A DNA stretch of 64,000 nucleotides from Actinomycetota bacterium. Lineage in GTDB: Bacteria > Actinomycetota > Coriobacteriia > Anaerosomatales > JAUXNU01. The position numbers and the translations under genes were made by a program. The stretch is from the NCBI GenBank assembly GCA_030682655.1, contig JAUXNU010000045.1, positions 9,909-73,908 of the forward strand. Reading direction: 5' to 3'. Of this stretch, positions 38,182-54,841 are shown piece by piece; within the stretch, counting starts at the first letter, position 1, and each line of letters begins with the position of its first letter. The notes under the pieces were generated by a model. The model was not told where the DNA came from, searched no databases, and was given only the letters and a program-made list of their open reading frames with translations.

Positions 38182-40716
38182 CTACCCCGCGACCACCACG
38201 CTCACGAGCTTGTCGGGGACGACAACGACCTTCCTCACGTCCTTGCCCTCCACCCAGCTCGCGACCTCGGTGAGCGCAACCGTGATCACGTCCTCCTCGG
38301 CAAGGCCCACCTCCACGGTGATCTTGCCGCGGACCTTCCCGTTGACCTGGACGGCCATCTCGGTCACGTCGGCGGCGGCGGCACTCGCGTCGTAGGCGGG
38401 CCACGATTCGCGGTGCACCGAATCCCCATGGCCAAGGACCTCGCGCCACAGCTCCTCGGCCATGTGCGGCACGAAGGGCGCGAGTAGGCGCGTGATCGTC
38501 TCGGCGACGTCGCGCACGAGTGCTAGGTCGCGCGAACCCGCGGCAACAGCGTTGCGGTAGTCGTAAGCGGCGTTCGTGAGCTCCATCAGCGCGGCGATCG
38601 CGGTGTTGAGCTGGAATCGGCGAATGTCGCCCTCGACCTTGTCGATGACGCGGTGCATCTCGCGGTGCAGCGTCTTGGCCGTCTCGTCACCCGACGCGGC
38701 GACGCCGCAGCCCGCCGCTGTCTCCTCGGCAGACTCGGCGACGAGGCGCCAGACGCGGCCGAGCCAGCGAAACATGCCGTCGAGCCCCTCGTAGGACCAC
38801 TCGAGGTCCTTGTCGGGCGGCGCCATGAACAGGATGTAAGCGCGTAGTGCATCGCACCCGTACTTGGCGATCATGTCTTCGGGGGCGACGACGTTGCCCT
38901 TGGACTTGCTCATGACCTCGCCGTCCATCTTCACCATGCCCTGCGTGAGCAGGTTCGTGAACGGCTCGCCGAACTGCACGAGCCCCATATCGCGGAAGAC
39001 TTTCGTGAAGAACCGCGAGTAGAGCAGGTGCAGGATCGCGTGCTCGATGCCGCCGATGTACTGATCTACCGGCATCCAGTAGTCGGCCTTCGACGTCTCC
39101 CAGATCGCTTCGGCGTTGCGCGCGTCGGTGTAGCGCAGGTAGTACCAGCTCGAGCACGTGAACGTGTCCATGGTGTCGGTCTCGCGCTTGGCGGGGCCGC
39201 CGCACTTCGGGCACGTCGTCTCGTAGAACTCGGGATGGTCCGCCAGTGTCTCGCCCTTGGTGATGTCGACGCCTCCCGGCAGCTCGATGGGCAGCTGCTC
39301 CTCGGGCACCGGCACAAGGCCGCACGCCGGGCAGTGGACCGCCGGAATCGGGTTGCCCCAGTAGCGCTGCCGAGAGATCAGCCAGTCGCGCAGGCGGAAG
39401 TTGATCGAGAACCGGCCCTGGCCACGCTCATCGAGCCACTCGGTGACCGCGCGCATGCCCTCGCTCGCCTTGCCACCGGGCATGCCGGTGAACTCGCCGG
39501 ACTGCACCATGATGCCGGGGCCGTCGTAGGCCTCATCCCACGGCACGTCCTCGCGCAGCCGCTGCGGAACATCCCGAAGCTCGCCAAGGAGCGCGTCGTC
39601 CTCGGCCACCACCACCGGCGGGATCGGCAGCCCATACTTCCGGGCGAATTCGAAGTCGCGCTGGTCACCGCTCGGAACGGCCATGACCGCGCCGGTTCCG
39701 TAGTCCATCAGCACGTAGTTGCTCACCCAGATCGGCACCTTCTCGCCGTTGACAGGGTTCACCACGTAGCGTCCCGTGAACGCGCCGATCTTCTCCGCCT
39801 CGCCGCTCGCACGCTCGACCGCCGTCTCACGTGCCGCCGTGTCCACCACGGCGCGTACGGGAGCCGCGTACTCGGTTCCATGCACGAGCTCGTGAACGAG
39901 CGAGTGCTCCGGTGCAAGCAGGAAGAACGTGCAGCCAAAGAGCGTGTCCGGCCGCGTCGTGAACACAGCGATCCTCTGATCGGTCGGCTCACCGGCAGCA
40001 TCGCAGAGCGTGAACTCGACCTCGGCGCCCTCGGAGCGCCCGATCCAGTTCGCCTGCATCGTCTTGACGCGGTCGGGCCAGCCCGTCAGCGTGTCGAGGT
40101 CGTCGAGCAGCTCTTGGGCATACTCGGTGATCTTGAAGTACCACTGCTCGAGGTCACGCTTCCCCACCACGCTCTTGCAGCGCCAGCACACGCCTTCGCC
40201 GATGACCTGCTCGTTCGCAAGCACGGTCTTGCAGCTGGGGCACCAGTTCACCGGCGACTTACGCCGCTCGACCAGACCGCGTTCCCAGAACTTCAGGAAG
40301 ATCCACTGCCCCCAGCGGTAGTACTCAACGTCGCTCGAAGCAAGTTTGCGGTCCCAGTCGTAGCTGAACCCCATGCGCCGGAACGACGCTTCCTGACGTG
40401 CGATGTTGGCGTGCGTCCAGGTCGCCGGATGAGTATTGCTCTTGATCGCGGCATTCTCCGCTGGCAGACCGAACGAGTCCCACCCCATCGGGTGAAGCAC
40501 CTTGCGCCCGGTCATCGTGAAGTACCGCGCCACGACATCGCCGATGGTGTAGTTGCGCACATGGCCCATGTGGATGTCGCCCGAGGGGTACGGAAACATC
40601 TCCAGGAGGTAGTACTTCGGCTTGGTCTCGTCCTCGATCACCGAGTAGAGCCGGTCGCTCTCCCAGACCTGCTGCCACTTCTCCTCGATCGAATGCGGGT
40701 CGTACTTCGATGCCAC
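38182..40716 (-). CDS. leuS: Leucine--tRNA ligase
   Basis: [18 protein letters not shown]-type motif [16 protein letters not shown]-type motif [11 protein letters not shown] 40716 lies 5 nt after GGAGG. Confidence 0.95.
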
Positions 40717-40826
40717 AACGGCCTCCGTGAAATGCGGGAACGGACTCCTTGGCATGATAGCCGAGGAGAGGCATGCGCGAAACGGCGGACGGCTGACACG
40801 CTGCGTGCACGACGGCGCGCGGCGCA

Positions 40827-41225
40827 CTACTCGGTGACCACGACCCCGACCGTGAAGGCGTCTTGAGCCGGTTGCGTGGTCTCCCACGAACGGCGGTACT
40901 CGAGACGAAGCGACCCCTCGCCCGTCCCCGATGGCTCCAGGTGCATCGTGAGGATACCCGGCGCGCCGATGGCATTCGAATCGAGCTGGAAATCCGGCTC
41001 GCCGACGAGCGTGAGTACCCCTCCATCATCGGCGACCGTCCAGTTGTAGCCCGTGCTCGGGTTCGCCGGCAGCGAGACATCCAGGGTCTGGTCCTGCCGC
41101 ATCTTGACGATAGAGCCTTCGTCGTCCACGCCGATCTTCACGACGTCGCTGGACCTGCAGCCAGCGAGCACTACAGCGGCAACCGCGAGTGTCGCCAGGA
41201 GCACGTATGTGAGCCTTGTGCGCAT
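40827..41225 (-). CDS. Chagasin-family (I42) peptidase-inhibitor-like lipoprotein
   Basis: Lipobox VVLAGC after the signal peptide [17 protein letters not shown]. Family motif NPSTGYNW. ~110-aa beta-rich domain. Confidence 0.7.
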
Positions 41226-41293: not shown

Positions 41294-41366
41294 GCTGCAA
41301 AGGGCGCACGCAAAGAAGCCCGCCGGTTTCCCGACGGGCTTCGAAGTCCTCTCGGTGGAGCCAAGG
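41294..41366. repeat. Distal direct repeat (att-like) of the tRNA-Ala island
   Basis: 73 nt aligning without gaps to 50846..50918 with 9 mismatches by hand count. The last 13 nt GGTGGAGCCAAGG are identical to the 3' end of tRNA-Ala. Contains the hairpin GAAGCCCGCCGG-TTTC-CCGACGGGCTTC (41315..41342). Confidence 0.8.
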
Positions 41367-41427
41367 CATGGTCGGTCGAGAGGATCTCGCCTAGCCGGGC
41401 GCGAGCACGCGCGTGACGCCACGCCAA

Positions 41428-41460
41428 GGCCCGAACGGTTCAGGTTCTCACCGTCGGGCC
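41428..41460 (-). terminator. Hairpin downstream of the zinc-ribbon ORF (weak terminator candidate)
   Basis: GGCCCGAACGG ... CCGTCGGGCC stem with one bulge and a 12-nt loop. Only a weak T tract follows. Confidence 0.25.
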
Positions 41461-41475
41461 GTGACGCACGCCAGT

Positions 41476-41613
41476 CTACTGCTTAACGAAGACCGTCTTG
41501 CTGCAGTTGGGGCACGGCGGGAGCGTATCCGTCGTGTCGTCCAAGTGAACCAGCTGCCCGCAGTTCGTGCACTTGTACGTGCCCTTGCCCGGCTTCTCGC
41601 CCGTGGTCGGCAT
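41476..41613 (-). CDS. Small zinc-ribbon protein (45 aa), not in the ORF track
   Basis: Own translation: MPTTGEKPGKGTYKCTNCGQLVHLDDTTDTLPPCPNCSKTVFVKQ*. Two CxxC pairs. Strong RBS GGAGGGAGG upstream of the ATG. Confidence 0.6.
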   Translation of the reverse strand: MPTTGEKPGKGTYKCTNCGQLVHLDDTTDTLPPCPNCSKTVFVKQ

Positions 41614-41746
41614 TACCACACCTCCCTCCGCACGCAACGTCTTGCACTGCCGCGAAGATCAGTCTGCGCCCCGAGTCTGACATCGGAAGCGAAGCGAGCG
41701 GTCGGTTGATTCAGCTGCCCGCCGCCGGCCCGAACCGCCGCGACGT

Positions 41747-42655
41747 CTACTCTTCGATGAAGAAGTCCTCGTCGAGCCGGTTCACGACGTACGTCGCGGC
41801 CTCCGTCACGCCGACGCCGTGATCAATCATCAGTTCGGCCAGTTGCTCGCCGTCGATCAGAACGATTCGCTTGTCGATGCGCCGAACGTAGTCACGCGCC
41901 TCGGCCGAGAACCTCGACGTGGTGATGAAGACACCTTTGCTCGCGCCCTGCCCCATGAGGCTGCCAGCGAAAGCCTGAATCTCCGGCCGTCCCACGTTGT
42001 TGGCCCAACGCTTCGCCTGGATGTAGACGACGTCGAGTCCGAGCTTGTCTTCCTTGATGATGCCGTCGATGCCATCGTCACCGCTGCGGCCGACGGCCTG
42101 ACCAGCGTCTGCAAGCGAGCCGCCGTAGCCCATCGTCACCAACAGCTTGACCACCAGCTGCTCGAAGAACCGAGGCGAAACCGCACCCACCCGCTCCATC
42201 ATCAGCTGCGCGAGATCCGAGCGCAGGGACTGGTAGCCGTTCTCCATGAGTTCTTCTGGAGTCTGGTCGCTCGCGTCCTCGCCCGCCGAGGAGTGCTCTG
42301 CCTGCGTGTGTGACCGATTCTTGAACTCTAGGAACTCCGGAAACTGCTTCAGAAATGCGTTGTTGATGGGTCCTGTGTGTGCAGCCAGCGTGTCCCGCCC
42401 GCGCTCAGTGATGCGCAGGATTCCCCTGGCAGGGCGCTCCACCAAGCCGGCTTGGCTCAGGTACGTCGCCGCCCATCCCGCGCGATTGTCGAAGGTTGCC
42501 TGACGGCCGCTTGGAAGAAGCTCGGCGCGGTCCGTCTCGGAGACACCGGTGGCAGTCGCCAGCGCATCCTTCGCGTCGGCCCATCTCCAATCGCCCCCGT
42601 CACCAAGCGACTTGAGCAGTGGCGACATCATCGACTGGTAGTCCGGAACGGTCAT
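41747..42655 (-). CDS. mrr: Mrr-like restriction endonuclease (Mrr_N winged helix + Mrr catalytic domain)
   Basis: N-terminus MTVPDYQSMMSPLLKSL..ATYLSQAGLVERPARGILRITERG. Catalytic core GRSGDDGIDGIIKEDKLGLDVVYIQAKRW (D..QxK). The ATG lies 1 nt after the stop of the upstream methyltransferase fusion. Confidence 0.88.
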   Translation of the reverse strand: MTVPDYQSMMSPLLKSLGDGGDWRWADAKDALATATGVSETDRAELLPSGRQATFDNRAGWAATYLSQAGLVERPARGILRITERGRDTLAAHTGPINNAFLKQFPEFLEFKNRSHTQAEHSSAGEDASDQTPEELMENGYQSLRSDLAQLMMERVGAVSPRFFEQLVVKLLVTMGYGGSLADAGQAVGRSGDDGIDGIIKEDKLGLDVVYIQAKRWANNVGRPEIQAFAGSLMGQGASKGVFITTSRFSAEARDYVRRIDKRIVLIDGEQLAELMIDHGVGVTEAATYVVNRLDEDFFIEE

Positions 42656-42656
42656 C

Positions 42657-45600
42657 CTACTTCCCCCACTCCCACACGTCGGCCTTCACGCACTCGTAGT
42701 TGGCGTCGAGCTCGGGCTGCATGAGCACGAGCGCGGCGATGCGACGCACCATCTCGGTGACGTAGCGCGCCTCCTCGGGCTTGAGGTCGCGGCCGAGGAG
42801 CGCGCGCTCGCGGTAGCTCAGCCACTTCTTGATGACCTGGTAGCCGCCAATCGTGTAGCGCCACACGTTGGCTGGCACGCAACGCCAGTACGCAACGTCG
42901 TTGAGGTAGATGTCGAAGCACGACTCGCCGAGGAGGGCGATCGCAGTTTCGGCCGACATGCCGAGCGGCTCCGCCTCCCGGGAAACCGCGGCGCACTCGT
43001 CGTCGGTGTAGGGCCGCTCGGTGAGCTTGCCGGTCGATGGCATGCAGACGCCACCCTGCCCAGCGACACCCCACCGAGCGGTCACAGCCAGATCTCCGGA
43101 ATCGAGCGAATCCCCCGTCGAAGAAGAGAGCGTGCCGACGCGAATCTGCGGCTGCGCGGCTGCCAGGCCAACCGGGGCATCAGGGTCTAGAAGCCGAATG
43201 ACCCTTTCCCCGAGTGCTGCAGAAGCCGCAAGCGCCTCTGAGTCCTTTGGCAGCGGGATTCGCGGCCAACCAGCTGCCACGCCGTCCGCGTTCGCCCCCA
43301 AGTAGGCGGGCGCAGCCATGACGGCGACGGCATGGGGCATCAGCGCAAAGCTCTCGCGCTGAGTACCGCCGTCCCCCAGGTAGCAGGCGACTCGTTCAGA
43401 AACGTTGGCCTGACCGGGCACTTGCTCGAATAGCGAGGTAGCGCTGCCCCTTGTCTGTAGCCACGGAAAGGCAGCGCCGTTGGGGCGAATGAAGTGATGG
43501 TCACAGGGCTCCGAGACGATGCAGAATGGTAGACCTTCGCGTGATCGCTCCGCCTTCGGGCGGGAGACCACGAAGACCTGACCGTCGGCGACAGCACCGA
43601 CGAGCGTGTCTCTGCGACGATCGAGCAGGCGGGCGCGATCTGTCCAGAAGACCCAGCGAGTGTCTAGAGGCCGGTATGCGTACCGGATGATGCGGCCCGC
43701 TTCGTCCCCGGCGCTGAGCAGGGCGTCCCGAACCTCACGGGCATTGAATTGTGGCGTGGCCGTAGCCAGCTGCGGAAGATGAGCACGAAGGTCGTCGAGC
43801 CCTCGCGAAGCGTCGAGGTACTCATCAATTCGACCCTGCAAAGTGCTCTGGTCGATCGCCACTAGGTCGATATCCCGAGCCGTAGTGATTCCCGGAGACC
43901 AGTCGGCGAAGAGGTCCTCCACGGTTGGCCACGACGTGAAATCCGGGTCGGTGGTTCTCGGCGAGAAGGCGAGCATTGGATCGGCGTCCGGGTCAAGGCG
44001 TTGCCAAGGCCTGCAGGGATCGCTGCTTTCCGAGGCGAGGTCGCTCAGTTTCGATGCACCCCAGAACTCGCGGTACATCACTTGGGCGGACTGCTTAGTG
44101 TCCCCTCCCTTGCGCGACAACACCGAGATCGAAGTCCCGATGCCGATCCCTTCCCTGTTCGCCGCCGTCGAAAAGACGCTCGGATCTGGACGCCCGTCCG
44201 GAGTCACCTTGCCTGTTCGAAACTTGTCTCCGTTGAGGCTATCGATCCAGATTGAGTCAAACACATCGAGAAACCGCTCTCGCATCCCGGTGTACGAGAA
44301 CCCGTCGAGCCACGAGTAGTTGGAGATCAGGCAGACAATGCCTTTCCCCATGTGTTGCACGATTTGGCGCTCGGCGATCCTGAAGAACCGGACGTACAGG
44401 TCATTGAGGCCCCTGCCCTCGGGTTTGGGAGCTCGCTTTGTGGTGCGGTAGGCATCCGACAGGTCTCGCTCCTCGTCAACCGCCATCCCGGCAAACCCGT
44501 TGTACGGTGGGTTTCCGATCACCACGAGGATCTGCTCTTCACGCTTGATGCGGTCCGCTGCGTCGCGCTCATGAGCGAACTCTGGGAACAGCAGGGTGGA
44601 GTGCATCTGACCCTCGCCGACCCGGCGATCCTTGGGCGATGCGACTTGGGCACCGTCGCCCCAGCCGGTTAGCGCGTTCGTTAGGTATATCGGTGCGCGC
44701 TCGCCGGCGTCACGCAGCGGCACGCCGAGTTCGGCCAGGAGGATGCCGAGCTGTAGGTGCGCCACGACGTATGGCGCGGGCATGATCTCGAAGCCGATGA
44801 CGCGACTCATCGCGGCGCGCTTCACGTCCTGGCGGGTGAGCGCATCAGCTCCCTTGGCCTGCAGCGTCTCGTCGATTTTGCGCAGCACCTCGACCAGGTA
44901 GGCGCCGGTGCCGCAGCACGGGTCGAGGACGACCACGCTCTCATCGGCGAGCCCGTCGGCGATGCCGAGCTCCTCGCGCAGGACGGTATCGACGCGAGCG
45001 ACCATGTACTTCACGACTTCGTCGGGCGTGTACCAGACGCCCAACTCCTTGCGCAGCTGTGGGTCGAACGCCTCGAGGAATGGTTCGTAGAAGTACTGGA
45101 CAGCGTGCTCCTCACGGAACTTCTCGAAGAAAGCGGCGCGATCGATGCGCCAGATGACCTCCTCGGCCCACTCGAGCACCTCGGAGATGCCAAGCGCGCC
45201 AAGCTGGCGAACGTCGGCGAACTGGCGGAAGAGCTCGTAGACCATCGGGACGTGCAGGGTCGCCGTCGCCGTCTCCCACTGGAAGCGCGACTCCCACGGG
45301 ATCGCCTGCGTGTGGTCGCGATCGCGCGCCCACAGGACCCAGCTCGCGAACATGCCGTAGAAGAGCGTCTGGACCAGCGTAGAGCGGAAGAAGTGGTCAC
45401 CCTTCTCGCCTTCGAACTTCAGGCCGAGCGCGTCTTCGAGCTGGCTGCGGAGCTGGTCGAGCGCGGGCAGCTCGTGGCGATGCTCCAGACGCAGACGTGC
45501 GGTGCGCGCATAGCTCGCAAGGAACCAGGCGAGGTCTTTGGGGTCGGAGAGCGGTGCGTTGTGGAGCAGGACTCGGCGGAGGAACTCCGTCAGGCCCTCG

Positions 45601-46103
45601 GCCGCGGTGTCGGCGAAGTTGCGGGGCTGGGTGACGCGAGCCCAGAAGGCGGCCTCACTCGTGGCGAGGCTGCAGGTCTCGAGCGTGCGCACGCCGGCGC
45701 CGGTGACGTTGCGGCCCACCAGCACGAAGTCGCGCAGGTTCGTGACCAGCACGAGGCCGTACCGCTCGACGTAGCGGGCGACCTGCTCGGACTCAGCAAC
45801 GGCGAATGCATCGTCGCTGGCGCCCTTGACCTCAATCGCGCCGCGGTTGGGAAGCTGGCCTTGGAGCGGGTTCTCGCCCAGCTCCCAGCCCTTGAGCTGC
45901 GGTGCCATGAACAGGCCACCGTCCGGGATTCCGCCGCCGGTGTTGCGCAGGTTGATGATGGCGCGGACCTTCGGCTTGAGGTGCTTGCCGACCTCATCGA
46001 GAAGGTTGGCGAGCGGCGCGTAGTAGCTGGTCTCGGCGACGCCTGCGCCTGATGCGCGGATGTCGCGTAGTTGCGTGAAATACGCCTCGACTGGTTCCCC
46101 CAC
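42657..46103 (-). CDS. Single-chain Type IIG-like restriction-modification protein (N-terminal PD-ExK-like domain + gamma-class N6-adenine methyltransferase + C-terminal specificity domain)
   Basis: N-terminus GIPDGGLF..GAIEVKG is PD..ExK-like. Methyltransferase motif I VLDPCCGTGAYL and motif IV VIGNPPYNGFAG. The C-terminus YRPLDTRWVFW and IGGYQVIKKWLSYR resembles the Type ISP/YeeA-type C-terminal specificity domain. Start set at GTG 46103, after GAGGGGG. Confidence 0.8.
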   Translation of the reverse strand: MGEPVEAYFTQLRDIRASGAGVAETSYYAPLANLLDEVGKHLKPKVRAIINLRNTGGGIPDGGLFMAPQLKGWELGENPLQGQLPNRGAIEVKGASDDAFAVAESEQVARYVERYGLVLVTNLRDFVLVGRNVTGAGVRTLETCSLATSEAAFWARVTQPRNFADTAAEGLTEFLRRVLLHNAPLSDPKDLAWFLASYARTARLRLEHRHELPALDQLRSQLEDALGLKFEGEKGDHFFRSTLVQTLFYGMFASWVLWARDRDHTQAIPWESRFQWETATATLHVPMVYELFRQFADVRQLGALGISEVLEWAEEVIWRIDRAAFFEKFREEHAVQYFYEPFLEAFDPQLRKELGVWYTPDEVVKYMVARVDTVLREELGIADGLADESVVVLDPCCGTGAYLVEVLRKIDETLQAKGADALTRQDVKRAAMSRVIGFEIMPAPYVVAHLQLGILLAELGVPLRDAGERAPIYLTNALTGWGDGAQVASPKDRRVGEGQMHSTLLFPEFAHERDAADRIKREEQILVVIGNPPYNGFAGMAVDEERDLSDAYRTTKRAPKPEGRGLNDLYVRFFRIAERQIVQHMGKGIVCLISNYSWLDGFSYTGMRERFLDVFDSIWIDSLNGDKFRTGKVTPDGRPDPSVFSTAANREGIGIGTSISVLSRKGGDTKQSAQVMYREFWGASKLSDLASESSDPCRPWQRLDPDADPMLAFSPRTTDPDFTSWPTVEDLFADWSPGITTARDIDLVAIDQSTLQGRIDEYLDASRGLDDLRAHLPQLATATPQFNAREVRDALLSAGDEAGRIIRYAYRPLDTRWVFWTDRARLLDRRRDTLVGAVADGQVFVVSRPKAERSREGLPFCIVSEPCDHHFIRPNGAAFPWLQTRGSATSLFEQVPGQANVSERVACYLGDGGTQRESFALMPHAVAVMAAPAYLGANADGVAAGWPRIPLPKDSEALAASAALGERVIRLLDPDAPVGLAAAQPQIRVGTLSSSTGDSLDSGDLAVTARWGVAGQGGVCMPSTGKLTERPYTDDECAAVSREAEPLGMSAETAIALLGESCFDIYLNDVAYWRCVPANVWRYTIGGYQVIKKWLSYRERALLGRDLKPEEARYVTEMVRRIAALVLMQPELDANYECVKADVWEWGK

Positions 46104-46277
46104 GCGTCTGCCCCCTCGGCATGCCAGAACGACCTCGAAGCCCAGCATACAAGAAGGATCCCTGGAGCACATGGGACAGGCGGCCAGATATAGTTGGCTG
46201 CTAGATAGTCACGTTCTGGAGGTGATTATCGTGACGCGGACTGCAACATCGCTCTGGGCGGCCGAGAGAACGACGAG

Positions 46278-47138
46278 CTAGGTGCTGGGCGGACTCAGAT
46301 TCCCGACGAACTGCCGAATCACAAGCACTGCCTCGTTCGCCGCTTGGGCCATCTCCGTCGCAGAGCCGCCCCGAGCCACGAGACTGGCGTAGTCCACAGC
46401 CCCGACCCGATTCGATTCCGAAAAATCCCCGGAGACTCGAATCAATGCGTCAGCAAGGAATGGGTCGCTCGCGACCGGACTCGCCGCAACCGCGACGGCC
46501 GCAGCCTCGGGCCCACCCGGCCACCATCGAAGCACGTAGACCAGGTCGTAGGCATCCTTCGGCTTGCGCCGGTCCAAATAGGCGTCCGCCTTCAGCGCCA
46601 CAAACGGCGCCAGATTCGCAACCTGGAAGTCCACTTCCGAGTAGGCTCCGTCAAGCAGCTGAAGGTCGCGCGTGATCGTGATGGAGTCCCTGAACGCAAG
46701 CTCAAGACCCCTCACGCACAGCAAACCCACGCCACCCGCACCGGCGGGTGGCGTGACCTTGGGTCGAAACACGGTTCCGGGCTCGACGTCTTCCCTGTCG
46801 CCGAGAAGTTCCAGAACGACGACATCACCGTCAACGGTGGCGGACCAGCGCCATGAGCTTCCGTCCACCCTCGAAAACCCGTTGTTCTTCAGGTTCGTCT
46901 CGAGTGTCGTGTATGCGCCCAGATCCTCCGCCTCGACCGCGAGTCTGAGAGCAACATCAACATCCGTCGAACCAACGTGGACCGGCTGGGCATAGCCGTC
47001 GCCCCGTACGAGGTATAGCGGGACGAGTCCGCCGACCAAACAGACCTTCTCTCTCCACGGTTGCCCGATTCCGCGCATCAGCGTGCCGAGAACCCTCTCG
47101 CAGCGCTTGGTTGCCTCACTGTTGTACTGCTCGACCAT
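46278..47138 (-). CDS. Minimal nucleotidyltransferase, AbiEii-like (module 1, 'B1')
   Basis: NTase signature VGGLVPLYL..VHVGSTDVDVAL (G[GS]..DxD). Later acidic strand VVVLELLGD. C-terminal KPKDAYDLVYVLRWWPGGP. Paralogous to 49866..50696. ATG 47138 lies 10 nt after the A1 stop, with GAAGGGGA as RBS. Confidence 0.7.
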   Translation of the reverse strand: MVEQYNSEATKRCERVLGTLMRGIGQPWREKVCLVGGLVPLYLVRGDGYAQPVHVGSTDVDVALRLAVEAEDLGAYTTLETNLKNNGFSRVDGSSWRWSATVDGDVVVLELLGDREDVEPGTVFRPKVTPPAGAGGVGLLCVRGLELAFRDSITITRDLQLLDGAYSEVDFQVANLAPFVALKADAYLDRRKPKDAYDLVYVLRWWPGGPEAAAVAVAASPVASDPFLADALIRVSGDFSESNRVGAVDYASLVARGGSATEMAQAANEAVLVIRQFVGNLSPPST

Positions 47139-47148
47139 GCAATCCCCT

Positions 47149-48168
47149 TCAGAAGCCGATGGAAGTTTCGCGCAGGTGCTCCGCCTGTTCCTCGCCGCGA
47201 GTCGGATCGGCAAGCGCGTCGGCGTAGATTCTGAACAAGGACACCCGGCGCACACCTCGGTCGTACTCCGACCCGACAAGGACGCCCTTGTGACCCCGCA
47301 GTACGACAAGGTTCGCACCGTCGTCGGCGGGCATCGCCCCCATCGCGCTCAAGACCACGTCGGCACGATGTGGAGTGGCCACCCAAGCCTCGAAGGTCCG
47401 CACCGCCGTGACGTGTGGAGCTACCATCTGGGCCGCAGCCACACCGGTGAAGTAAGCCTGAACGCCGTGGCCATCGTTAGTCAGATGTTGTGCCACCGTG
47501 CGCATGGTCTCTTCTGCACCGTTGTTGAGAAGGAAGCCCCGTGCGGTCACTTTGCGATCGGCCACTGCATCACGGGCGTACAGATCAAGCAGGCCGGCGG
47601 GATCCATCACGCGACGACGCGTCGCGGGTCCGCGGCCCGAACGCTCCAGCAGACCTGCGGCCTCAAGTGCGACGACCGTGTTCTGGGCAGCCCCGAGCGA
47701 CGCGCGACCCTCAGCCGCCAGGTCAGTGACCTTCCAGTCCCGTTTCGAGTCCGACAGCAGAGCGAGCGCAACGCCCCCCGCGGCACCGCTCAGGCTTAGA
47801 GACGCAGCGGGCCGTTCCGGTGGCAGCTCGGCTTCGTCCTGGAGCCGTATGAGAATACTCGGCGTCATCAGCCGCACCCTGATGTGACGGTCGTCCATGT
47901 AGTTCGCCTCAGCGGCATTCAATTCTGCGAGTGCCTTTTGGCTGAAATGGCGGCCTACGATCACGGGCACGCCCGACGAAGCCTTCGAACGGCCGAGCGC
48001 CAGCTCAACTTGCTCGGTCCTTCCCGATCCAGCATCGACCACCTGTAGCGGGACGTGGTAGTCGTAGTCGCCGTCGAGGTCCACGGTGTCGCCCACTGCA
48101 CGAAAGCGAGCGACCTCCGTTTGTGTCAGGCGGCGAGCAAGTTCAAGAGCTTGCGTCTCGGCATCCAT
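47149..48168 (-). CDS. Three-domain partner protein (module 1, 'A1'): degenerate nuclease-fold N-domain + wHTH + AbiEi-like C-domain
   Basis: Central wHTH ALALLSDSKRDWKVTDLAAEGRASLGAAQNTVVALEAAGLLE. C-terminus GANLVVL..RRVSLFRIYADAL..RGEEQAEHL. Paralogous to 48811..49872. ATG 48168 lies after GGAG; the track start at 48318 was trimmed. Confidence 0.65.
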   Translation of the reverse strand: MDAETQALELARRLTQTEVARFRAVGDTVDLDGDYDYHVPLQVVDAGSGRTEQVELALGRSKASSGVPVIVGRHFSQKALAELNAAEANYMDDRHIRVRLMTPSILIRLQDEAELPPERPAASLSLSGAAGGVALALLSDSKRDWKVTDLAAEGRASLGAAQNTVVALEAAGLLERSGRGPATRRRVMDPAGLLDLYARDAVADRKVTARGFLLNNGAEETMRTVAQHLTNDGHGVQAYFTGVAAAQMVAPHVTAVRTFEAWVATPHRADVVLSAMGAMPADDGANLVVLRGHKGVLVGSEYDRGVRRVSLFRIYADALADPTRGEEQAEHLRETSIGF

Positions 48169-48222
48169 TTTCACTCCATTGCCATTTTCATTGCGCACTG
48201 AAAATACCACATGGGTGAAAAT
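48165..48222. promoter_or_regulatory. Nested inverted repeats at the A1 start (candidate operator or RNA structure)
   Basis: Outer pair CCATTTTCAC (48165-74) / GTGAAAATcG (48215-24). Inner pair CATTTTCA (48183-90) / TGAAAATa (48199-206). On the coding strand the last half-site reads GAGTGAAAATG and runs into the start codon. Confidence 0.5.
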
Positions 48223-48642
48223 CGCGCCACGTGACCTCATCCCCTCCCGTCTCCTATCCGTCCGCCTGACCACAGCACAGATCGCCGTGGGCAACCGCAC
48301 CGCCTTCGACCTGTTCAAGGGGTCGAGAGCTCCGAACTTACGGTCGAGGGCAGTGAAGATCGAGTGCAGACCTTGAGAAGGAGAACGCAGGATAAGCAGA
48401 GCCGCTCAAGGCGCGGCGCTGTGGAGAGAACGCATCGCCGACTAAGCCGGTGAGCAGCGCAAGAGCCACTGAGCCTCACCCGTGAGCCACGAGCGGCTAT
48501 CGGCGTCACCGAGACGCCCCGAGCCGCTCTGGCGCCCGCACGGGAGCAGCTCTGAAAGAGGCCTTTTCGGATCCACGGAGCGACAAGTCCCTTGTGCACC
48601 GGTGCATAGCAGGCGGCGGTCAATCTGCCAAATGGAATCATG

Positions 48643-48689
48643 CTCTGTGTACACAACGTGCCTTCGAGAGGCAGATTGTGTACACAGAG
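48643..48689. promoter_or_regulatory. 13-bp inverted repeat containing two copies of the palindrome TGTGTACACA
   Basis: CTCTGTGTACACA (48643-55) ... TGTGTACACAGAG (48677-89), with a 21-nt spacer. Located in the divergent intergenic region ~120 bp upstream of A2. Confidence 0.4.
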
Positions 48690-48762
48690 CATCACTAGCG
48701 AACGCATCGGGAGCAAGGCTATCAACTCCAGACCGTCGTCGCCCGGTTTGACGGTTGGCCGG

Positions 48763-48816
48763 TTTCACTGATATGGTCGCTTTCACCGCCTGGTGAAAGG
48801 GGCCACTACAGTGAAA
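48763..48816. promoter_or_regulatory. Nested inverted repeats at the A2 start (candidate operator or RNA structure)
   Basis: Outer pair TTTCACTG (48763-70) / CAGTGAAA (48809-16). Inner pair CTTTCACC (48780-87) / GGTGAAAG (48792-99), spacer GCCT. The last half-site contains the GTG 48811 start. Confidence 0.5.
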
Positions 48817-49872
48817 GAACTCGAACTCATAGAACAGCTCCCCGAGGCCCTGCGGGCATGTCTCGAGAATGTGCCCAGGACCAGTATCGAAGCAACCCAG
48901 CGAGAGCAGCTTCTGACCAACGGCATGAGAGCCGATCTCATCGTCAGCCTCAGCATCTTGGGCCGCAAGCGAACGATGGTCATCGAGGCCAAAGGCAGTG
49001 GTCAACCGAAGCGAGCGAGAGAGGCGGCCGACCAGCTCAAACGCTTCCTGCTCGATGACCGCCTCAAAGGCGCCTATCCCGTGTTCGCCGCGCCCTATGT
49101 CTCGGAGGCCAGCGCAGCCATCTGTCAGGAGTCTCAGATTGGCTTCTTCGACTTGGCCGGCAACTGCCGCTTCGCGCTGGACGACATCTACGTAGAGAAG
49201 ACATCGGCCGACAATCCACTCAAGGAGAAGCGCAACGAGGCCTCTCTGTTCACTCCCAAGTCATCTCGGATTCTGCGAGTTCTCCTGAACGAGCCGCAAC
49301 GCGACTGGCAGGTTCAGCAGCTTTCCAAGGCGGCTGAGGTGAGCATCGGTCTGGCGTCAAAGATCAAGCGTCAGCTCGAGGACCGGGAGTGGATTGTCGT
49401 CGGCCAGAGCGGAATCCGCCTCACCCAGCCCGAGGCTATGCTGCAAGCATGGGCAACTGTCTATTCCTACAAGCAGAATCAAGTCCGCGAATACTACACG
49501 CTCGACGACCTGAGCGATGCCGAAACCACGATAGCCGACTGGTGTCGCGAGAGCGAAGTGGAGTACGCGCTCACTGGCTTCTCGGGAGCCCGGCTCTCCT
49601 CTCCCCGCGTTCGCTACAATCGCGCAAGTGTGTACGTGCGCTCGAGGATGGACAGCCTTACCGAGAACACGGGTCTCAAGCCAGTCGACACAGGAGGGAA
49701 TGTCCTTTTGCTTAAACCCTATGACGACGGCGTCTTCAACGGCGCGCGAGTCCATTATGAGATGCGAACCGTCTGCCCTGTTCAGCTCTACCTGGATCTG
49801 CAGTCCATGGCGGGACGGGGCGAAGAGGCTGCAGAGGAGATTCTGGCGAGGGAGCTGCGTCCCTCATGGTGA
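48811..49872 (+). CDS. Three-domain partner protein (module 2, 'A2'): PD-(D/E)xK-like N-domain + wHTH + AbiEi-like C-domain
   Basis: N-domain ADLIVSLSILGRKRTMVIEAKGSG (D..ExK) and FFDLAGN. wHTH SSRILRVLLNEPQRDWQVQQLSKAAEVSIGLASKIKRQLEDREWI. C-terminus GGNVLLL..RTVCPVQLYLDLQSMAGRGEEAAEEI. Start GTG 48811, after AAAGGGG; the track start is 48793. Confidence 0.7.
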   Translation: MKELELIEQLPEALRACLENVPRTSIEATQREQLLTNGMRADLIVSLSILGRKRTMVIEAKGSGQPKRAREAADQLKRFLLDDRLKGAYPVFAAPYVSEASAAICQESQIGFFDLAGNCRFALDDIYVEKTSADNPLKEKRNEASLFTPKSSRILRVLLNEPQRDWQVQQLSKAAEVSIGLASKIKRQLEDREWIVVGQSGIRLTQPEAMLQAWATVYSYKQNQVREYYTLDDLSDAETTIADWCRESEVEYALTGFSGARLSSPRVRYNRASVYVRSRMDSLTENTGLKPVDTGGNVLLLKPYDDGVFNGARVHYEMRTVCPVQLYLDLQSMAGRGEEAAEEILARELRPSW

Positions 49873-50696
49873 AGAACAGAACAGACTACCCGCCGGACGC
49901 AGTCGAGGCGGCAAGATCAGTCCTCGTGGAGCTGGTACATATCCTCGGAGAGTATCGCGACGACATGGTGATCGTTGGCGGATGGGTACCGCCGCTTCTG
50001 ATGCCCGACAGCACGGGGCACGTGGGCAGCACCGACGTCGACATCGCGCTGAACCACATGGCTGAGAACGACGAAGTCTACGCCAGGATCAGTGCATCAC
50101 TGCTGACCAACGGCTATGTGCAGCACGAGTCTCAACCATTCATCTGGTTTCGAGAGGTCTCTCTGGGCGGCGGCGTCGTGACCGTCGAGATCGACTTCCT
50201 CGCGGGTGAGTACGGCGGCACCGGGAAGCACCATCGAACACAGCGAGTCCAGGACCTCAAGCCGCGCAAGGCGCGCGGCGCCGATCTCCTCTTCAGTGAG
50301 ACGAGAGAACGCGAGATAGAGGGTCGGCTCCCCAGCGGCGCGTTGGACACCGTCTCGGTAAAGGTTGCCGGAGTCGTGTCATACCTCGTGATGAAGAGCT
50401 CGGCACTCGAGACGCGAATCAAAGATAAGGACGCCTACGACATCTGGTTCACGTTGGCCAACTACCCGGGTGGAATCCCAGCAGTGGTCGAGGAGTTCAC
50501 TCCGTTCGCGGACCACGGACTCGTGCGCGAAACCGTCTCGGTTCTGGAAGGTAAGTTCACCTCCCCTGAGCACTTCGGGCCAACCTCGGTTGCGGTGTTT
50601 CTTGAGCATGACGGCGATGCGGCGGTGCTCACCAAGCGCGACGCATTTGAGCGTGTTCAAGCGCTGCTTGACGGTCTGGGAGCGTTGCGGGACTAG
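49866..50696 (+). CDS. Minimal nucleotidyltransferase, AbiEii-like (module 2, 'B2')
   Basis: VGGWVPPLL..GHVGSTDVDIAL, VVTVEIDFLAGE, IKDKDAYDIWFTLANYPGG. The ATG overlaps the A2 stop (ATGGTGA). Confidence 0.72.
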   Translation: MVKNRTDYPPDAVEAARSVLVELVHILGEYRDDMVIVGGWVPPLLMPDSTGHVGSTDVDIALNHMAENDEVYARISASLLTNGYVQHESQPFIWFREVSLGGGVVTVEIDFLAGEYGGTGKHHRTQRVQDLKPRKARGADLLFSETREREIEGRLPSGALDTVSVKVAGVVSYLVMKSSALETRIKDKDAYDIWFTLANYPGGIPAVVEEFTPFADHGLVRETVSVLEGKFTSPEHFGPTSVAVFLEHDGDAAVLTKRDAFERVQALLDGLGALRD

Positions 50697-50845
50697 AGCA
50701 ACGGCTCAGGAGTCCCGCTTGGCTCCCGCCCTCACCCGACGCCGGAAGTCAGGGTTCACGCCGCTGCCGCCCCAGTTCGGGCAGTCATTCCGCAGTCCTT
50801 CCGCAGACCTCGGCCCCTCTTCGCCCCTTCAGCCCCTGTCGCGTA

Positions 50846-50918
50846 GCCGCAAAGGGCGTATGCGAAGAAGCCCGCCGGTATCCCGACGGGCTTCGGAGTT
50901 CTTTTGGTGGAGCCAAGG
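50846..50918. repeat. Proximal direct repeat (att-like) overlapping the 3' end of tRNA-Ala
   Basis: Partner of 41294..41366. Includes the hairpin GAAGCCCGCCGG-TATC-CCGACGGGCTTC (50867..50894) and the tRNA 3' terminus. Confidence 0.8.
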
Positions 50919-50980
50919 GGGATCGAACCCCTGACCTCATGGCTGCCAGCCATGCGCTCTCCCAGCTGAGCTATGGCCCC
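50905..50980 (-). tRNA. tRNA-Ala (anticodon GGC)
   Basis: Hand-folded cloverleaf. Acceptor GGGGCCA/TGGCTCC with the G3:U70 Ala identity pair, anticodon stem CATGG/CCATG with loop CTGGCAG, T arm AGGGG-TTCGATC-CCCCT, encoded CCA. Confidence 0.9.
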
Positions 50981-51244: not shown

Positions 51245-52072
51245 TCATCGCATGTATTCCCAAGGTTGAACGAGGCGCGCAAGGTCGACCTGCCAGCGCC
51301 CTTGGCCAATCGACCGTGCGCACCCGAGCAGGTCGCGCACGGTCGCGTGCGCTGCGGCGAGGGCATCGACCGGCGACAGCCTACGGGCCAGGTGGCACGC
51401 GAGCGCTGAGGAGAGCATACAGCCGGTTCCGCGGACATCGCCGACTCCGGCGACGAGCGGGTGCGTTGCGCACACGGCGCTCCCGTTCGCAAGCACAAGG
51501 ACATCGACTGCCTCAGCAGGGCTGCTACCCGGCAGCCCCGTCACGCACACCGCCGAGCCATAGCGAGATGCGAGCGTTCGCGCCGCCGCGACTGCGGCGT
51601 CCGCATTCGCAACGCCGTCGACGGCGGCGAGGTGCGCAGCCTCCTCGGCGTTGGGGGTGATGAGGGTTGAGACCCGCGCCACCATGTCCACCGCGCGCAC
51701 CGCGCCCTCGACAAGCGAACCGCCGCTCGAGCTTGCGAGCACCGGGTCCGAGACGACGGCGGGCAGGTCGGCGCGCACGAGCCACTCGCCGACGGCCAGA
51801 GCGAGCACGTCCGAGCCGAGTGCACCGACCTTCACGCACGAGAAGCTGCCCTCGGCAAGCACGGCTTCGAGCTGCGCGATGAGCGTCTCGGGCTCGACGG
51901 GCCAAGCACCAGCGAAGCTTGCCGAGTTCTGTGCGGTGACAGTGGTGACCACCACCGCGGGCTGATAGCCGAGGCGCGACATCACGAACGCGTCGAGGAG
52001 CACGCCCGCGCCCACCGAGGGGTCGAGCCCACCCACGGCGAGTGCTCGCGGCGCTGCGACTGGCGCGCTCAC
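51245..52072 (-). CDS. thiD: Hydroxymethylpyrimidine/phosphomethylpyrimidine kinase
   Basis: LAVGGLDPSVGAGVLLD, VKVGALGS, and C-terminal GTGCMLSSALA. GTG 52072 overlaps the thiC stop (GTGA). Confidence 0.88.
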   Translation of the reverse strand: MSAPVAAPRALAVGGLDPSVGAGVLLDAFVMSRLGYQPAVVVTTVTAQNSASFAGAWPVEPETLIAQLEAVLAEGSFSCVKVGALGSDVLALAVGEWLVRADLPAVVSDPVLASSSGGSLVEGAVRAVDMVARVSTLITPNAEEAAHLAAVDGVANADAAVAAARTLASRYGSAVCVTGLPGSSPAEAVDVLVLANGSAVCATHPLVAGVGDVRGTGCMLSSALACHLARRLSPVDALAAAHATVRDLLGCARSIGQGRWQVDLARLVQPWEYMR

Positions 52073-53361
52073 GCGAGGACCTCCGTGCTCGTCACGCGCA
52101 TCGAGCACAGTGGACCGCACATTGTGCATTCGCTCGCGTCACCAGCGTCGCTGTCGGCACGCATCTCGGCGGGCAAGGCCGGGTCGATTGCTAGCGCAAA
52201 CTGGCCGGGCCAGTCGAGCGCCTTGCGAGCGGTCGCCATCGCGTCGTCCCAGTCGCGCGCGCCGGGCAGCCCGGCCGCCACGTCGCCGGCGTGCGCGGCG
52301 ATGCGGCACGCGATCACGCCCTCTCGCACGTCGTCCGCGTCAGGCAGGCGCACGTGCTCGGCGCGCGTGACGTAGCACAGTAAATCGGCGCCCGACATCG
52401 CCGCAAGTGTTCCGCCGACCGCTGAGGTGATGTGGTCGTAGCCCGGCGCGACGTCGGTGACGAGCGGGCCGAGCACATACAGCGGCACGCCGTGGCACGC
52501 GCGCTTGATGGCGGTGATCTGTGCCGCGACCTCGTGCAGCGGTACGTGTCCCGGCCCCTCGACGATGACGCGAACCCCGGCGTCGCACGCTCGCTGAACC
52601 AGCCCGCCAAGCACCGCGACCTCCGTCATCTGGGCCTCGTCGCCGGCATCCGCCAAGCAGCCGGGCCGCATCGAATCGCCGAGGCTGAGCGTCACGCCGT
52701 ACTCCCGGCAAATCTCGAGCACCTCGTCGAAACGATCGTAGTATGGGTTCTCGGCGTCGTGGACGCGCATCCAGCACGCGAGCAGCGCCCCGCCTCGCGA
52801 GACGATGCCTATGCGCCGCCGTTCGATTGCGCCGGACGAGAGCTGGCTGCAAGTGATGGAGGCATGCACCGTCTGGAAGTCGACGCCCTCCTCGGCGTGG
52901 CGTCGGACAGCGCCGATGAGCGAGTCCGACGTCATTGCCGCAGGCCTGCCGCCAAGCTCGGCGGCCTTCACCGCAGCTTCGTACACCGGGACGGTGCCGA
53001 CCGGCACGTCGGCTCGCGCCAGCACGGCACTGCGCACAGCGCGGATGTCGCCGCCGGTCGAAAGGTCCATGACCGCATCGGCGCCGGCCACGATGGCGAC
53101 GTCGAGCTTGTCCAGCTCGCCAGCGAGATCGGACGAGAGCGCTGACGTGCCGAAGTTCGCGTTCACCTTCGTGCGCAACCCGGTCCCGACGACGCAGGCG
53201 CGAATCCGCCCGACCCGCGCATGCGAGCCGAGCACTGTCGCGCGACCGTCGAGCAGCAGCTCGCGCAAGGCGTCGGGCGTAGTGTGCTCCTCGGCGGCGA
53301 GGCGCCGAAGGACCACCTCCGGCGGGACGAGGGAGTCGTCGTGGGAACGGGTCGAGCTCAT
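52069..53361 (-). CDS. thiC: Phosphomethylpyrimidine synthase (short-form ThiC)
   Basis: KVNANFGTS, DLSTGG, VPVYEA, GIVSRGG, IEGPGHVPL, and the C-terminal cluster CTMCGPLCSM. Confidence 0.93.
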   Translation of the reverse strand: MSSTRSHDDSLVPPEVVLRRLAAEEHTTPDALRELLLDGRATVLGSHARVGRIRACVVGTGLRTKVNANFGTSALSSDLAGELDKLDVAIVAGADAVMDLSTGGDIRAVRSAVLARADVPVGTVPVYEAAVKAAELGGRPAAMTSDSLIGAVRRHAEEGVDFQTVHASITCSQLSSGAIERRRIGIVSRGGALLACWMRVHDAENPYYDRFDEVLEICREYGVTLSLGDSMRPGCLADAGDEAQMTEVAVLGGLVQRACDAGVRVIVEGPGHVPLHEVAAQITAIKRACHGVPLYVLGPLVTDVAPGYDHITSAVGGTLAAMSGADLLCYVTRAEHVRLPDADDVREGVIACRIAAHAGDVAAGLPGARDWDDAMATARKALDWPGQFALAIDPALPAEMRADSDAGDASECTMCGPLCSMRVTSTEVLA

Positions 53362-54026
53362 TGGGCACCTCCGGAGAAAGGGACGCTCGCCGCAATGTCA
53401 GCGAGACGGCGTGCTGCAGCGTGCGGATCCCGCGCGTGCGCGACGGCCGAGATCACGCATACCGCGTCGCCGCCGGCGGCCAGGACGTCAGCGGCGTTGC
53501 GCTCAGCGATTCCGCCGATCGCGGCAAGAGGCAGACCGACCGCCTCGCGGACGCGCCGCAGCCCGTCGAGGCCAATTGGCGGCACAGCGTCGTCCTTCGA
53601 CCCGGTCGCGAAAATCGGCCCGACGCCCAGGTAGTCGGCACCCAACGCCACGGCGACCATCGCCTCCTTCGCGGTCGAGACCGACACGCCGAGCAGCCCG
53701 CGCCCGCAAGCTCGCCACTCGTCGAGCGCCGAGAGGTCCGACTGCCCGAGGTGCAGGCCGTCGGCGCAGGCGGCCACAGCGAGAGCGGCGTCGTCGTTGA
53801 CGATGAACAGCGCCCCGAACGCGGAGCACACGTCGCGAACCGCGCGCGCAGCCTGAAGCCTACGGGCGTCGAAGCGCTTGTGACGGAACTGCACGATGCA
53901 AGCGCCGCCTGCCGCTGCATGCACCGCGAGCCCTTCGTGAGTGCGCCCCAACTCCGGCACGTCGGCGGTGACGAAATACAGACCGCGGATGACGTCGAAC
54001 GCTCGAGGGACGGCCTCCACGGTCAC
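53358..54026 (-). CDS. thiE: Thiamine-phosphate synthase
   Basis: LYFVTAD.., VQFRHK, FIVNDD, HLGQSD, GVGPIFATGSK, AIGGI. Confidence 0.9.
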   Translation of the reverse strand: MTVEAVPRAFDVIRGLYFVTADVPELGRTHEGLAVHAAAGGACIVQFRHKRFDARRLQAARAVRDVCSAFGALFIVNDDAALAVAACADGLHLGQSDLSALDEWRACGRGLLGVSVSTAKEAMVAVALGADYLGVGPIFATGSKDDAVPPIGLDGLRRVREAVGLPLAAIGGIAERNAADVLAAGGDAVCVISAVAHARDPHAAARRLADIAASVPFSGGAQ

Positions 54027-54841
54027 GCCGTCTCAATCCGGACGCTCGTCAGCGCGGTGGCGTCCAGCGCATCGAGCGCGTCGTAGAGGGCGGCGTGGAA
54101 CGTGCCCGGCCCCTGCGACCGGACTGCGGCGAGTTCGCCCGCCACTCCGAAGGCGGCGAGCGCCTCGGCAGCGGCGGCTGCGTAATCGGAGGCGACGGCG
54201 AGGAATGACGCGCACATCGTCGACGACATGCAACCCGAGCCGGTGATGCGGCCCATAAGCGGGTGACCGTTTGCCACGACAAAGACGCGCTCGGCGTCGG
54301 CGATGTGGTCGACCGCGCCGGTCACCGCGACGGCACAACCGTGCTGCCGAGCGAGCGCCTGTGCGGTCACCGCAGTTTCGCCTGCGACGCCCATGCACTC
54401 GACGCCGCGGATCTCGGCGGACTCGCCCGCGAGGAACGCGACCTCGGCGGCGTTGCCGCGCACGAGTGCGACATCGACCTCGACAAGGATACGGCGAGCG
54501 GCATCGTTGCGCAGCGCAGTCGCACCCGCACCGACCGGGTCGAATACCACCGGGACACCAGCTTCGTTGGCCGCGCGACCCGCAAGAACCATGGAGTCGA
54601 CGAGGCCCGGCCAGAGGGTACCGATGTTGAGCACCACGGCACCCGCCATCCGTGCGAACTCCTCGACCTCTTCGGGCGCGTGCGCCATGACCGGCAGCGC
54701 GCCGAGCGCCAGGATCGCATTCGCGGTCTCGTTCATCACCACGAAGTTGGTGATGTTGTGGATGAGCGGCTTGGCCTCGCGAATCGCCGAGAGGTGCTCG
54801 GCAGTCGAAGTGGCGTCGGGAACGGAGCGGTTCACACACAT
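54023..54841 (-). CDS. thiM: Hydroxyethylthiazole kinase
   Basis: PLIHNITNFVVMNETANAILALGALPVMA, VLNIGTL, VFDPVGAGAT, GSGCMSS. ATG 54841 lies after AGGAG. Confidence 0.9.
   Translation of the reverse strand: MCVNRSVPDATSTAEHLSAIREAKPLIHNITNFVVMNETANAILALGALPVMAHAPEEVEEFARMAGAVVLNIGTLWPGLVDSMVLAGRAANEAGVPVVFDPVGAGATALRNDAARRILVEVDVALVRGNAAEVAFLAGESAEIRGVECMGVAGETAVTAQALARQHGCAVAVTGAVDHIADAERVFVVANGHPLMGRITGSGCMSSTMCASFLAVASDYAAAAAEALAAFGVAGELAAVRSQGPGTFHAALYDALDALDATALTSVRIETA

Follow-up and report, generated by a model that had tools for sequence, protein, structure and literature searches.

We analyzed a 64-kb stretch (64,000 nucleotides, hereafter the window) of contig JAUXNU010000045.1 from an actinobacterium, in which a cluster of anti-phage genes lies directly downstream of the tRNA-Ala(GGC) gene, between two imperfect direct repeats. 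This cluster is probably a horizontally acquired, mosaic and decayed integrative defense island that resembles a cis-mobilizable element (CIME). It interrupts an otherwise conserved order consisting of the tRNA gene, a terminator-like hairpin, a gene for a chagasin-family inhibitor and leuS. The 9,479 bp between the repeat copies (41367-50845) contain, starting from the tRNA, an AbiE-like pair (AbiEii_b and AbiEi), a second such pair (a 339-residue protein and AbiEii_a), a Type IIG restriction-modification gene (IIG), a gene for the Mrr nuclease and a small Zn-ribbon open reading frame (ORF). According to its LeuS sequence (best match 82%), the host belongs among uncultured Coriobacteriia-like Actinomycetota. 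Repeat, composition and motif counts given below refer to the window.

An earlier note on this DNA had described a gapless direct repeat of 73 nt with nine mismatches, of which the terminal 13 nt are identical and represent the 3′ end of the acceptor and T stem of tRNA-Ala. Both statements held: the tRNA-proximal and the distal copy are identical at 64 of 73 positions (88%) without gaps, and the shared 13 nt (GGTGGAGCCAAGG on the plus strand, CCTTGGCTCCACC on the tRNA strand) match the tRNA found by ARAGORN and Rfam, comprising 3 nt at the end of the T stem, the 3′ strand of the acceptor stem, the discriminator base and CC. The pair is the longest and best direct repeat of the window, the runner-up being 44 nt long at 70% identity. 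On the tRNA strand, each copy consists of CCTTGGCTCCACC, a spacer of ~10 nt, a 12-bp stem with a tetraloop and a CUUCUU tail. The tRNA part is 100% identical and the remaining 60 nt are 85% identical. Eight of the nine mismatches (positions 41296, 41307, 41309, 41312, 41328, 41344, 41348, 41351 and 41353 of the distal copy) are transitions. The claim that they all fall in the part corresponding to the downstream hairpin was correct in so far as none touches the 13 nt, but all of them lie outside the 12-bp stem: one is in the loop, four separate the tRNA end from the stem, and the other four are found on the far side of the stem. The probability that nine random mismatches would all avoid the 13 + 24 constrained positions was calculated by hand as ~0.001. 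The distal copy is located 69 nt upstream of the chagasin-like gene, and no tRNA-like structure extending beyond the 13 nt was found in it (Rfam, E ≤ 1). Within a terminator-like hairpin (50678-50727) 3′ of the AbiEii_b gene, we also noticed a 14-nt sequence that nearly repeats the end of tRNA-Ala in inverted orientation (TCCCGCTTGGCTCC, 50713-50726, 93% complementary to 50909-50922); it could be a chance match or a relic of another attachment (att) site.

We considered whether the repeat itself could be a chance match or a dispersed terminator or element of the repetitive extragenic palindromic type, unrelated to any insertion, in which case the enclosed genes would be core genes. A hairpin motif, GCCCGTCG...CGGCGGGC, is indeed kept downstream of tRNA-Ala across the family. 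However, the hairpin core occurs at only two sites in the window, both in the repeat copies, with none expected (100 shuffles), 13 nt of the tRNA are part of the repeat, its two copies resemble each other more than either resembles the hairpin of any relative, and the enclosed genes are absent at this locus from all relatives with an empty site. This explanation is effectively refuted.

The unoccupied arrangement predicted by the earlier note, in which tRNA-Ala is followed by the hairpin, the I42 inhibitor gene and leuS, was seen in six relatives (L004, L006, L084, L085, L086 and L088, metagenome-assembled genomes or metagenome contigs). In these loci the tRNA-Ala(GGC) gene, a hairpin of the same GCCCGTCG...CGGCGGGC family as that of the window, a chagasin homolog and leuS are contiguous; all six relatives stand at genus or family distance from the window's host. 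Further relatives have other small inserts at this site or no insert: leuS lies 155 bp from the tRNA in L083 and 1.1-1.7 kb from it in L002, L036 and L087, and L003 carries an ORF of 2,283 codons. No homolog of the island genes was found in 87 related leuS or tRNA-Ala loci. The insert adjoins the 3′ end of the intact tRNA, and the sequence that is absent from the empty-site relatives starts past the terminator, at ~50845. Exact look-up of the chagasin and AbiEi proteins returned only contigs of sample SRR13727541 (L001 and L097, the sole further contigs of this organism), all with occupied junctions. The tRNA flanks of 12 relatives were aligned with respect to the question of which repeat copy is native. 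The proximal copy is native-like at CCA, and the distal copy fits the family consensus TTGCG past the hairpin. The alignment is ambiguous, and it was not established which copy is foreign.

A second copy of the island was found through an AbiEi homolog with 89% identity. In this genome (L095, GCA_947085935.1), the island lies between leuS and tRNA-Ala and contains AbiEii_b, AbiEi, the 339-residue protein, AbiEii_a, a shortened IIG and the Zn-ribbon ORF, with Mrr missing. Between the two genomes, the island genes are 87-94% identical at the protein level and 73-89% identical at third codon positions, whereas the flanking core genes (leuS, EamA, RsfS, LytR_C, HD, NadD, ProA, ProB, Obg, L27 and L21) reach 55-80% and 33-66%, respectively. 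The shortened IIG departs from the other island genes (59% protein identity, 48% at third positions), for which divergence of its specificity region is the probable reason. The gap in identity between island and flanks indicates that the island moved horizontally and, together with the absence of island genes from the 87 related loci, bears out the earlier view that it is foreign. By this comparison, the island is far younger than the split of its two hosts, yet it is found at the same tRNA in both. The AbiEi/AbiEii_b pair and the block that follows it show similar identity in the two copies (88-92% at the nucleotide level) and therefore moved as one unit at least once. Homology of the two copies begins within ~5 nt of the inner edge of the proximal repeat, and a 46-nt block just inside this repeat is common to both. 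Past CCA, the proximal copy of the window and L095 agree in the first 9 nt (AAAGAACTC), whereas the distal copy and all relatives differ there. The tRNA of L095 retains its own A66/T7 base pair, so a crossover, if any, occurred 3′ of tRNA position 66. As a separate observation, Mrr is replaced in L095 (5445-5488 and 5629-7749) by an ORF of 42 codons and an 11-nt tandem repeat (CCGCAGGNACA ×4), and IIG is cut to 706 residues, with ~90% amino acid identity in its neighbors versus 59% in IIG.

The description of the segment as a defense island was upheld by PADLOC and Pfam, which identified the Mrr type IV nuclease, the Type IIG enzyme and the AbiE-like pairs; the matches to mREase_IV, REase_MTase_IIG, AbiEii and AbiEi_2 exceed the minimum of two recognized anti-phage systems by which such islands are defined. 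The two AbiE-like pairs (A and B in Table 1) are divergently arranged distant paralogs with 25% identity, and in each of them the AbiEi and AbiEii genes are adjacent in one operon, as in type IV toxin-antitoxin systems of the AbiE class. The palindrome between them is a probable operator, as judged from its sequence. The ~380 nt upstream of the 339-residue protein's gene (48223-48637), common to the window and to the tRNA-Pro element L089 described below and deleted in L095, contain short repeats and palindromes and are probably regulatory. The IIG protein, including its first ~350 residues, showed neither a helicase nor a nuclease domain in the domain searches. Its true start is probably ~20 codons downstream, because its homologs have ~1,140-1,150 residues. 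Classification as a Type ISP enzyme, a single polypeptide with an Mrr-like nuclease, a superfamily 2 helicase-like ATPase, a methyltransferase and a target recognition domain, was rejected, as the nuclease and helicase were not detected and the PADLOC class is Type IIG. The earlier note had also stated that no recombinase lies between the repeats. Comparison of all ORFs with Pfam, NCBIfam and PADLOC detected no recombinase, excisionase, relaxase or transposase there, and the leftover ORFs had no Pfam match even at E ≤ 5. Non-coding DNA amounts to ~1.1 kb in total; since genes fill the island, there is no room for a recombinase. A transposon with a target-site duplication was likewise rejected, as there is no transposase, the repeat is 73 nt long and 12% diverged, and terminal inverted repeats are lacking. 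From their sequences, the AbiE toxin-antitoxin pairs (by abortive infection), the Type IIG enzyme and the methylation-dependent Mrr nuclease are predicted to guard the host against phages and incoming DNA.

Table 1. Features of the defense island and its flanks in the window (aa, amino acids; wHTH, winged helix-turn-helix; nt, nucleotides)
Feature	Position	Strand	Evidence and remarks
leuS, conserved anchor gene	38182-40755	-	80 related loci
Chagasin-family (I42) inhibitor lipoprotein, core-side island flank	40827-41225	-	PF09394, 9e-20; homologs immediately follow tRNA-Ala in six relatives
Distal repeat copy, attR-like (13-nt tRNA 3′ fragment 41354-41366 and homologous hairpin, arms 41315-41326 / 41331-41342)	41294-41366	-	Alignment, fold
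Terminator-like hairpin 3′ of Zn-ribbon ORF	~41418-41472		Fold
Zn-ribbon ORF, 45 aa (DUF1451 in precomputed calls)	41476-41613	-	Strong ribosome-binding site; 93% aa identity to L095
6.9-kb cassette (339-aa protein, AbiEii, IIG, Mrr)	41661-48605	-	blastn against L089, 80-89% nt identity, collinear
Mrr type IV restriction endonuclease (Mrr_N + Mrr_cat)	41747-42655	-	PF04471, 1e-37; PF14338, 1e-29; PADLOC mREase_IV, 5e-91; starts 1 nt past IIG stop
Type IIG / 'type ISP'-like methyltransferase and specificity protein (N6_Mtase, Eco57I, Type_ISP_C)	42657-46172	-	Pfam; PADLOC REase_MTase_IIG, 3e-82
AbiEii nucleotidyltransferase (AbiEii_a), pair A toxin, 286 aa	46278-47138	-	PF08843, 7e-6; PADLOC AbiEii
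wHTH protein, 339 aa, distant AbiEi paralog, pair A antitoxin	47149-48168	-	Weak MarR_2 match; 25% identical to AbiEi, E 7e-12; ends 10 nt before AbiEii_a
Palindrome, 24-nt arms, in divergent promoter region upstream of AbiEi	48640-48692		Arms 92% complementary
AbiEi_2 antitoxin / transcriptional regulator, pair B, 353 aa	48811-49872	+	PF09952, 8.6e-15; 100% match to P0121 (NCBI name: AbiEi family antitoxin)
AbiEii-like nucleotidyltransferase (AbiEii_b), pair B toxin, 276 aa	49866-50696	+	Weak PADLOC AbiEii matches; 25% identical to AbiEii_a, E 4e-19; overlaps AbiEi stop
tRNA-proximal repeat copy, attL-like (final 13 nt of tRNA and 60 nt downstream including terminator hairpin, arms 50867-50878 / 50883-50894)	50846-50918	-	Alignment; RNA fold -32.5 kcal/mol, z -4.6
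tRNA-Ala(GGC), CCA encoded, intact, insertion target	50905-50980	-	ARAGORN; Rfam RF00005, 65 bits

The larger part of the island, a 6.9-kb cassette running from the 339-residue protein to Mrr, was also found in integrase-bearing elements at tRNA-Pro(GGG) (L089-L092 and L100). The window from 48605 to 41661 is collinear with L089 from 7593 to 14445, in the same orientation to the tRNA, and the IIG homologs of L089-L092 are 81% identical to that of the window. In L089, the cassette lies inside an 11-kb element with a 380-residue integrase gene adjoining the tRNA, genes for HTH_3, HTH_17 (Xis-like) and 282-residue proteins, a 45-nt exact att repeat inside tRNA-Pro and, at each end, arm-type repeats with the sequence TGTAGCAACG. 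In L100, the second example of such a tRNA-Pro element, GmrSD and SIR2-HerA replace Mrr. These elements carry the integrase, HTH_17 and 282-residue genes and the arm-type repeats, whereas the window has the AbiEi/AbiEii_b pair at the place of this integration module and tRNA-Ala as the target. On this comparison, the island is a mosaic that carries the cargo of a family of integrative elements without that family's integration module. The IIG/ISP-like gene is always directly followed by a type IV nuclease gene, which is Mrr in the window (41747-46172) and L089 (10001-14351) and GmrSD in L100 (10001-15179), and an AbiE-like pair precedes it, which makes a conserved composite with a swappable nuclease partner. 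A further AbiEi_4/AbiEii pair lies just beyond attR of the tRNA-Pro element of L089 (15405-17091), which suggests that AbiE pairs recurrently gather at the edges of such islands.

The occurrence of the cassette in the tRNA-Pro elements and of the AbiEi/AbiEii_b pair in unrelated defense contexts (L098, L099 and L104) speaks against a single element, and the earlier view of the segment as one element was not established. The locus could instead be a hotspot at which the AbiE pair, the 6.9-kb cassette and the Zn-ribbon ORF arrived in several independent events, with the repeat being the scar that an earlier, unrelated integration left behind before its cargo was replaced. Mosaic composition agrees with such a history (GC content of 0.60 in the AbiE half and 0.645 in the restriction-modification half), as does the thi operon, a lineage-specific insert on the other side of the tRNA, and hotspots without a detectable mobile element are known (PMC10121019). 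We nevertheless regard it as improbable, given that the AbiE pair and the cassette moved together at least once and that the homology of the two island copies starts within ~5 nt of the repeat. This history is partly compatible with that of the decayed integrative island.

Composition was compared with that of the flanks, as the earlier note had proposed, and gave a mixed result. The tetranucleotide distance of the island (0.0118) is greater than that of all 72 segments of the same size (mean 0.0077, standard deviation (SD) 0.0010; ~4 SD), but this signal comes from the AbiE half, at 46.5-51 kb (GC 0.60-0.62), whereas the restriction-modification and Mrr half is core-like and the GC content of the island at third codon positions (0.70-0.80) overlaps that of core genes. 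We rejected composition as proof of foreignness and treat it as partly informative, since the restriction-modification half looks like core DNA and the nearby thi operon deviates more strongly than the island does. This thiM-thiE-thiC-thiD operon (51245-55051, minus strand; GC 0.69-0.71) has the most deviant tetranucleotide composition in the window. It is situated on the opposite side of tRNA-Ala and is missing from L082, L083, L086, L087 and L095, where the tRNA abuts an EamA gene, and thus represents a second lineage-specific insert at this tRNA. It is preceded, before thiM, by a full-length but sub-threshold match to the thiamine pyrophosphate riboswitch (54890-55019, minus strand; 37.9 bits, E 6e-6).

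The history that we favor starts with a circular element, and the steps from that element onward are inferred. Its attP would have consisted of a tRNA-Ala 3′ end and terminator captured from a related host. Recombination of attP with the chromosomal tRNA-Ala 3′ end, probably by a tyrosine integrase acting within the last ~10-13 nt (GGCTCCACC), would have restored the tRNA and moved the native 3′ fragment, along with its hairpin, to the opposite end of the island. Later loss or replacement of the integration module would have left a CIME-like remnant with att-like ends and without integration genes. Since its ends are 12% diverged, the island is probably fixed, or at most mobilizable in trans. 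An element with an attP of this layout was found among circular contigs of IMG/VR: L106 (11,663 bp, 144-nt terminal overlap), which resembles a phage or satellite, encodes an integrase, a terminase and a D5-like primase, and its attP has 36 nt of contiguous identity to the 3′ part of this tRNA-Ala, followed by its own terminator hairpin. As read from its sequence, L106 offers a direct precedent for an element that supplies the tRNA 3′ end together with a terminator, and it has the same tRNA-Ala(GGC) target as the inferred ancestor of the island. Unlike the island, it carries the integrase, terminase and D5 primase genes, and it has no sequence in common with the island beyond the tRNA part; its 36-nt identity block, which reaches the anticodon stem, is absent from the distal copy of the window.

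Two integrases were considered as helpers, of which one was rejected and the other is unlikely. The 36-nt core of L106 is missing from the distal copy, and an integrase of the L106 type could therefore not act on the island. The window's own recombinase gene (91-1407, plus strand) is an unlikely helper, as it adjoins tRNA-Met, whose 3′ end differs. It encodes a 438-residue tyrosine recombinase (Phage_integrase, 7.5e-21, and Phage_int_M) with 30% identity to the L089 integrase, ends 89 nt from the 3′ end of tRNA-Met(CAT) (1496-1570, minus strand; tRNA-Asn follows at 1667-1742, plus strand) and is probably the end of another integrated element that extends past the left edge of the window. In plasmid and phage databases, the island query matched only at the tRNA. 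We found no integrase-bearing version at tRNA-Ala with the 13-nt core; the known cassette-sharing elements use tRNA-Pro.

Several observations weigh against the favored history besides the core-like composition noted above. The CCACCA of the tRNA corresponds to CCACCG in the distal copy, so that a displaced native end would have to have mutated later. With 13 nt of tRNA and 60 nt of flank, the repeat is atypical beside the tRNA-internal att repeats of 36-45 nt in L106 and L089. Neither island copy contains an integrase or a remnant of one, and the enzyme is hypothetical. A search for arm-type integrase sites at both island ends returned only a tandem TTCCGCAG ×2 at 50788-50808, a motif that is not enriched in the window. 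No empty site of the same species was found, the closest relative having just 82% LeuS identity, and no circular junction was found among the assembled contigs. In L095, the hairpin after the tRNA is unrelated to that of the window; if the proximal hairpin was borne by the element, it must have been swapped in one of the lineages. The distal tRNA-derived repeat was not found in L095 above shuffled controls. The earlier note had named close relatives with the same genes but without repeats as evidence against integration, and L095 comes near to this case, but its relationship to the window's host is not close, and rearrangement of its distal flank has put genes for a cation ATPase and TrkA where the chagasin gene would be. 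In sum, the claim of site-specific integration stands as to horizontal acquisition; site-specific entry was not established, as no integrase, circular junction or same-species empty site was found.

The main rival to this history is entry without an integrase, in which circular or linear DNA carrying the island and a captured 73-nt piece of a related tRNA-Ala locus was incorporated by Campbell-type or homology-facilitated illegitimate recombination. Such entry would duplicate exactly the stretch of homology that was carried, and the island would never have needed an integrase of its own. Both island copies lack an integrase and have the same tRNA-proximal gene, and the integrase-less form therefore seems itself to have moved between hosts. 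In addition, 13 nt of tRNA with 60 nt of flank resemble an arbitrary captured piece rather than a tRNA-internal core, the 8:1 ratio of transitions to transversions and the divergence of ~25% at unconstrained positions fit a related, homeologous donor, and the 31-nt hairpin block with its one mismatch could be the crossover site. On the other hand, a 73-nt stretch that is 88% identical, and whose longest uninterrupted match is ~15 nt, is a very poor RecA substrate, the circular intermediate is hypothetical here as well, a perfect but non-functional 13-nt tRNA fragment is better explained by a recombinase core, and the repeat is absent altogether from L095. We judge this rival to be rather unlikely. 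A similarly low probability is given to the idea that the integrase-less island is itself the mobile unit, having crossed genera to the same tRNA by means of a portable att or homology cassette made of the tRNA 3′ end and terminator, and being served by an unlinked integrase in trans, in the manner of a satellite or CIME, or by host recombination.

Under the favored history, the island is best compared with known tRNA-associated elements. A classification of the sublocations of att sites in tRNA genes was reportedly given by Williams in 2002. Abutment on the tRNA, end repeats, empty sites in relatives and a history distinct from that of the flanks, all typical of islands that target tRNA genes, were found here; an integrase of its own was not. 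As in the tRNA hotspots of Escherichia coli (PMC10121019), the 3′ end of a tRNA gene is the insertion site, a restored tRNA is paired with a partial 3′ copy at the far end, the cargo is defensive (restriction-modification, type IV and Abi systems) and occupancy varies among relatives; unlike in those, the integrase is missing and the repeat covers only 13 nt of the tRNA but 60 nt of the sequence that follows it. CIMEs keep attL and attR, while genes for integration and transfer are absent (PMC5704250). The island likewise is bounded by att-like direct repeats into which the target gene's 3′ end extends, no integrase, excisionase, relaxase or other transfer gene was found in it, and its cargo is partly that of integrase-bearing elements. 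As to an origin by decay from an element with the same att site, the island has 6.9 kb in common with integrase-bearing elements, but those are located at tRNA-Pro. It differs from CIMEs in that its repeats have diverged by 12% and take in only 13 nt of the target gene, that an incoming cognate element sharing the core is not known, and that its descent from an integrative and conjugative or integrative and mobilizable element is putative; its host is an uncultured Coriobacteriia-like actinobacterium.

A decayed integrative island at a tRNA gene is of a familiar kind and reveals no new mechanism. It does provide a well-bounded case, from an uncultured Coriobacteriia-like lineage, of defense cassettes being shuffled between integrative frames: the same 6.9-kb cassette, with its AbiE, Type IIG and type IV nuclease genes, is found both in tRNA-Pro elements that have an integrase and in a tRNA-Ala island that has none, and the latter has nonetheless crossed a genus-level boundary to the same tRNA in two genera. 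The case bears on the question, raised for hotspots of E. coli and Pseudomonas, of how defense islands without mobility genes move (PMC10121019).

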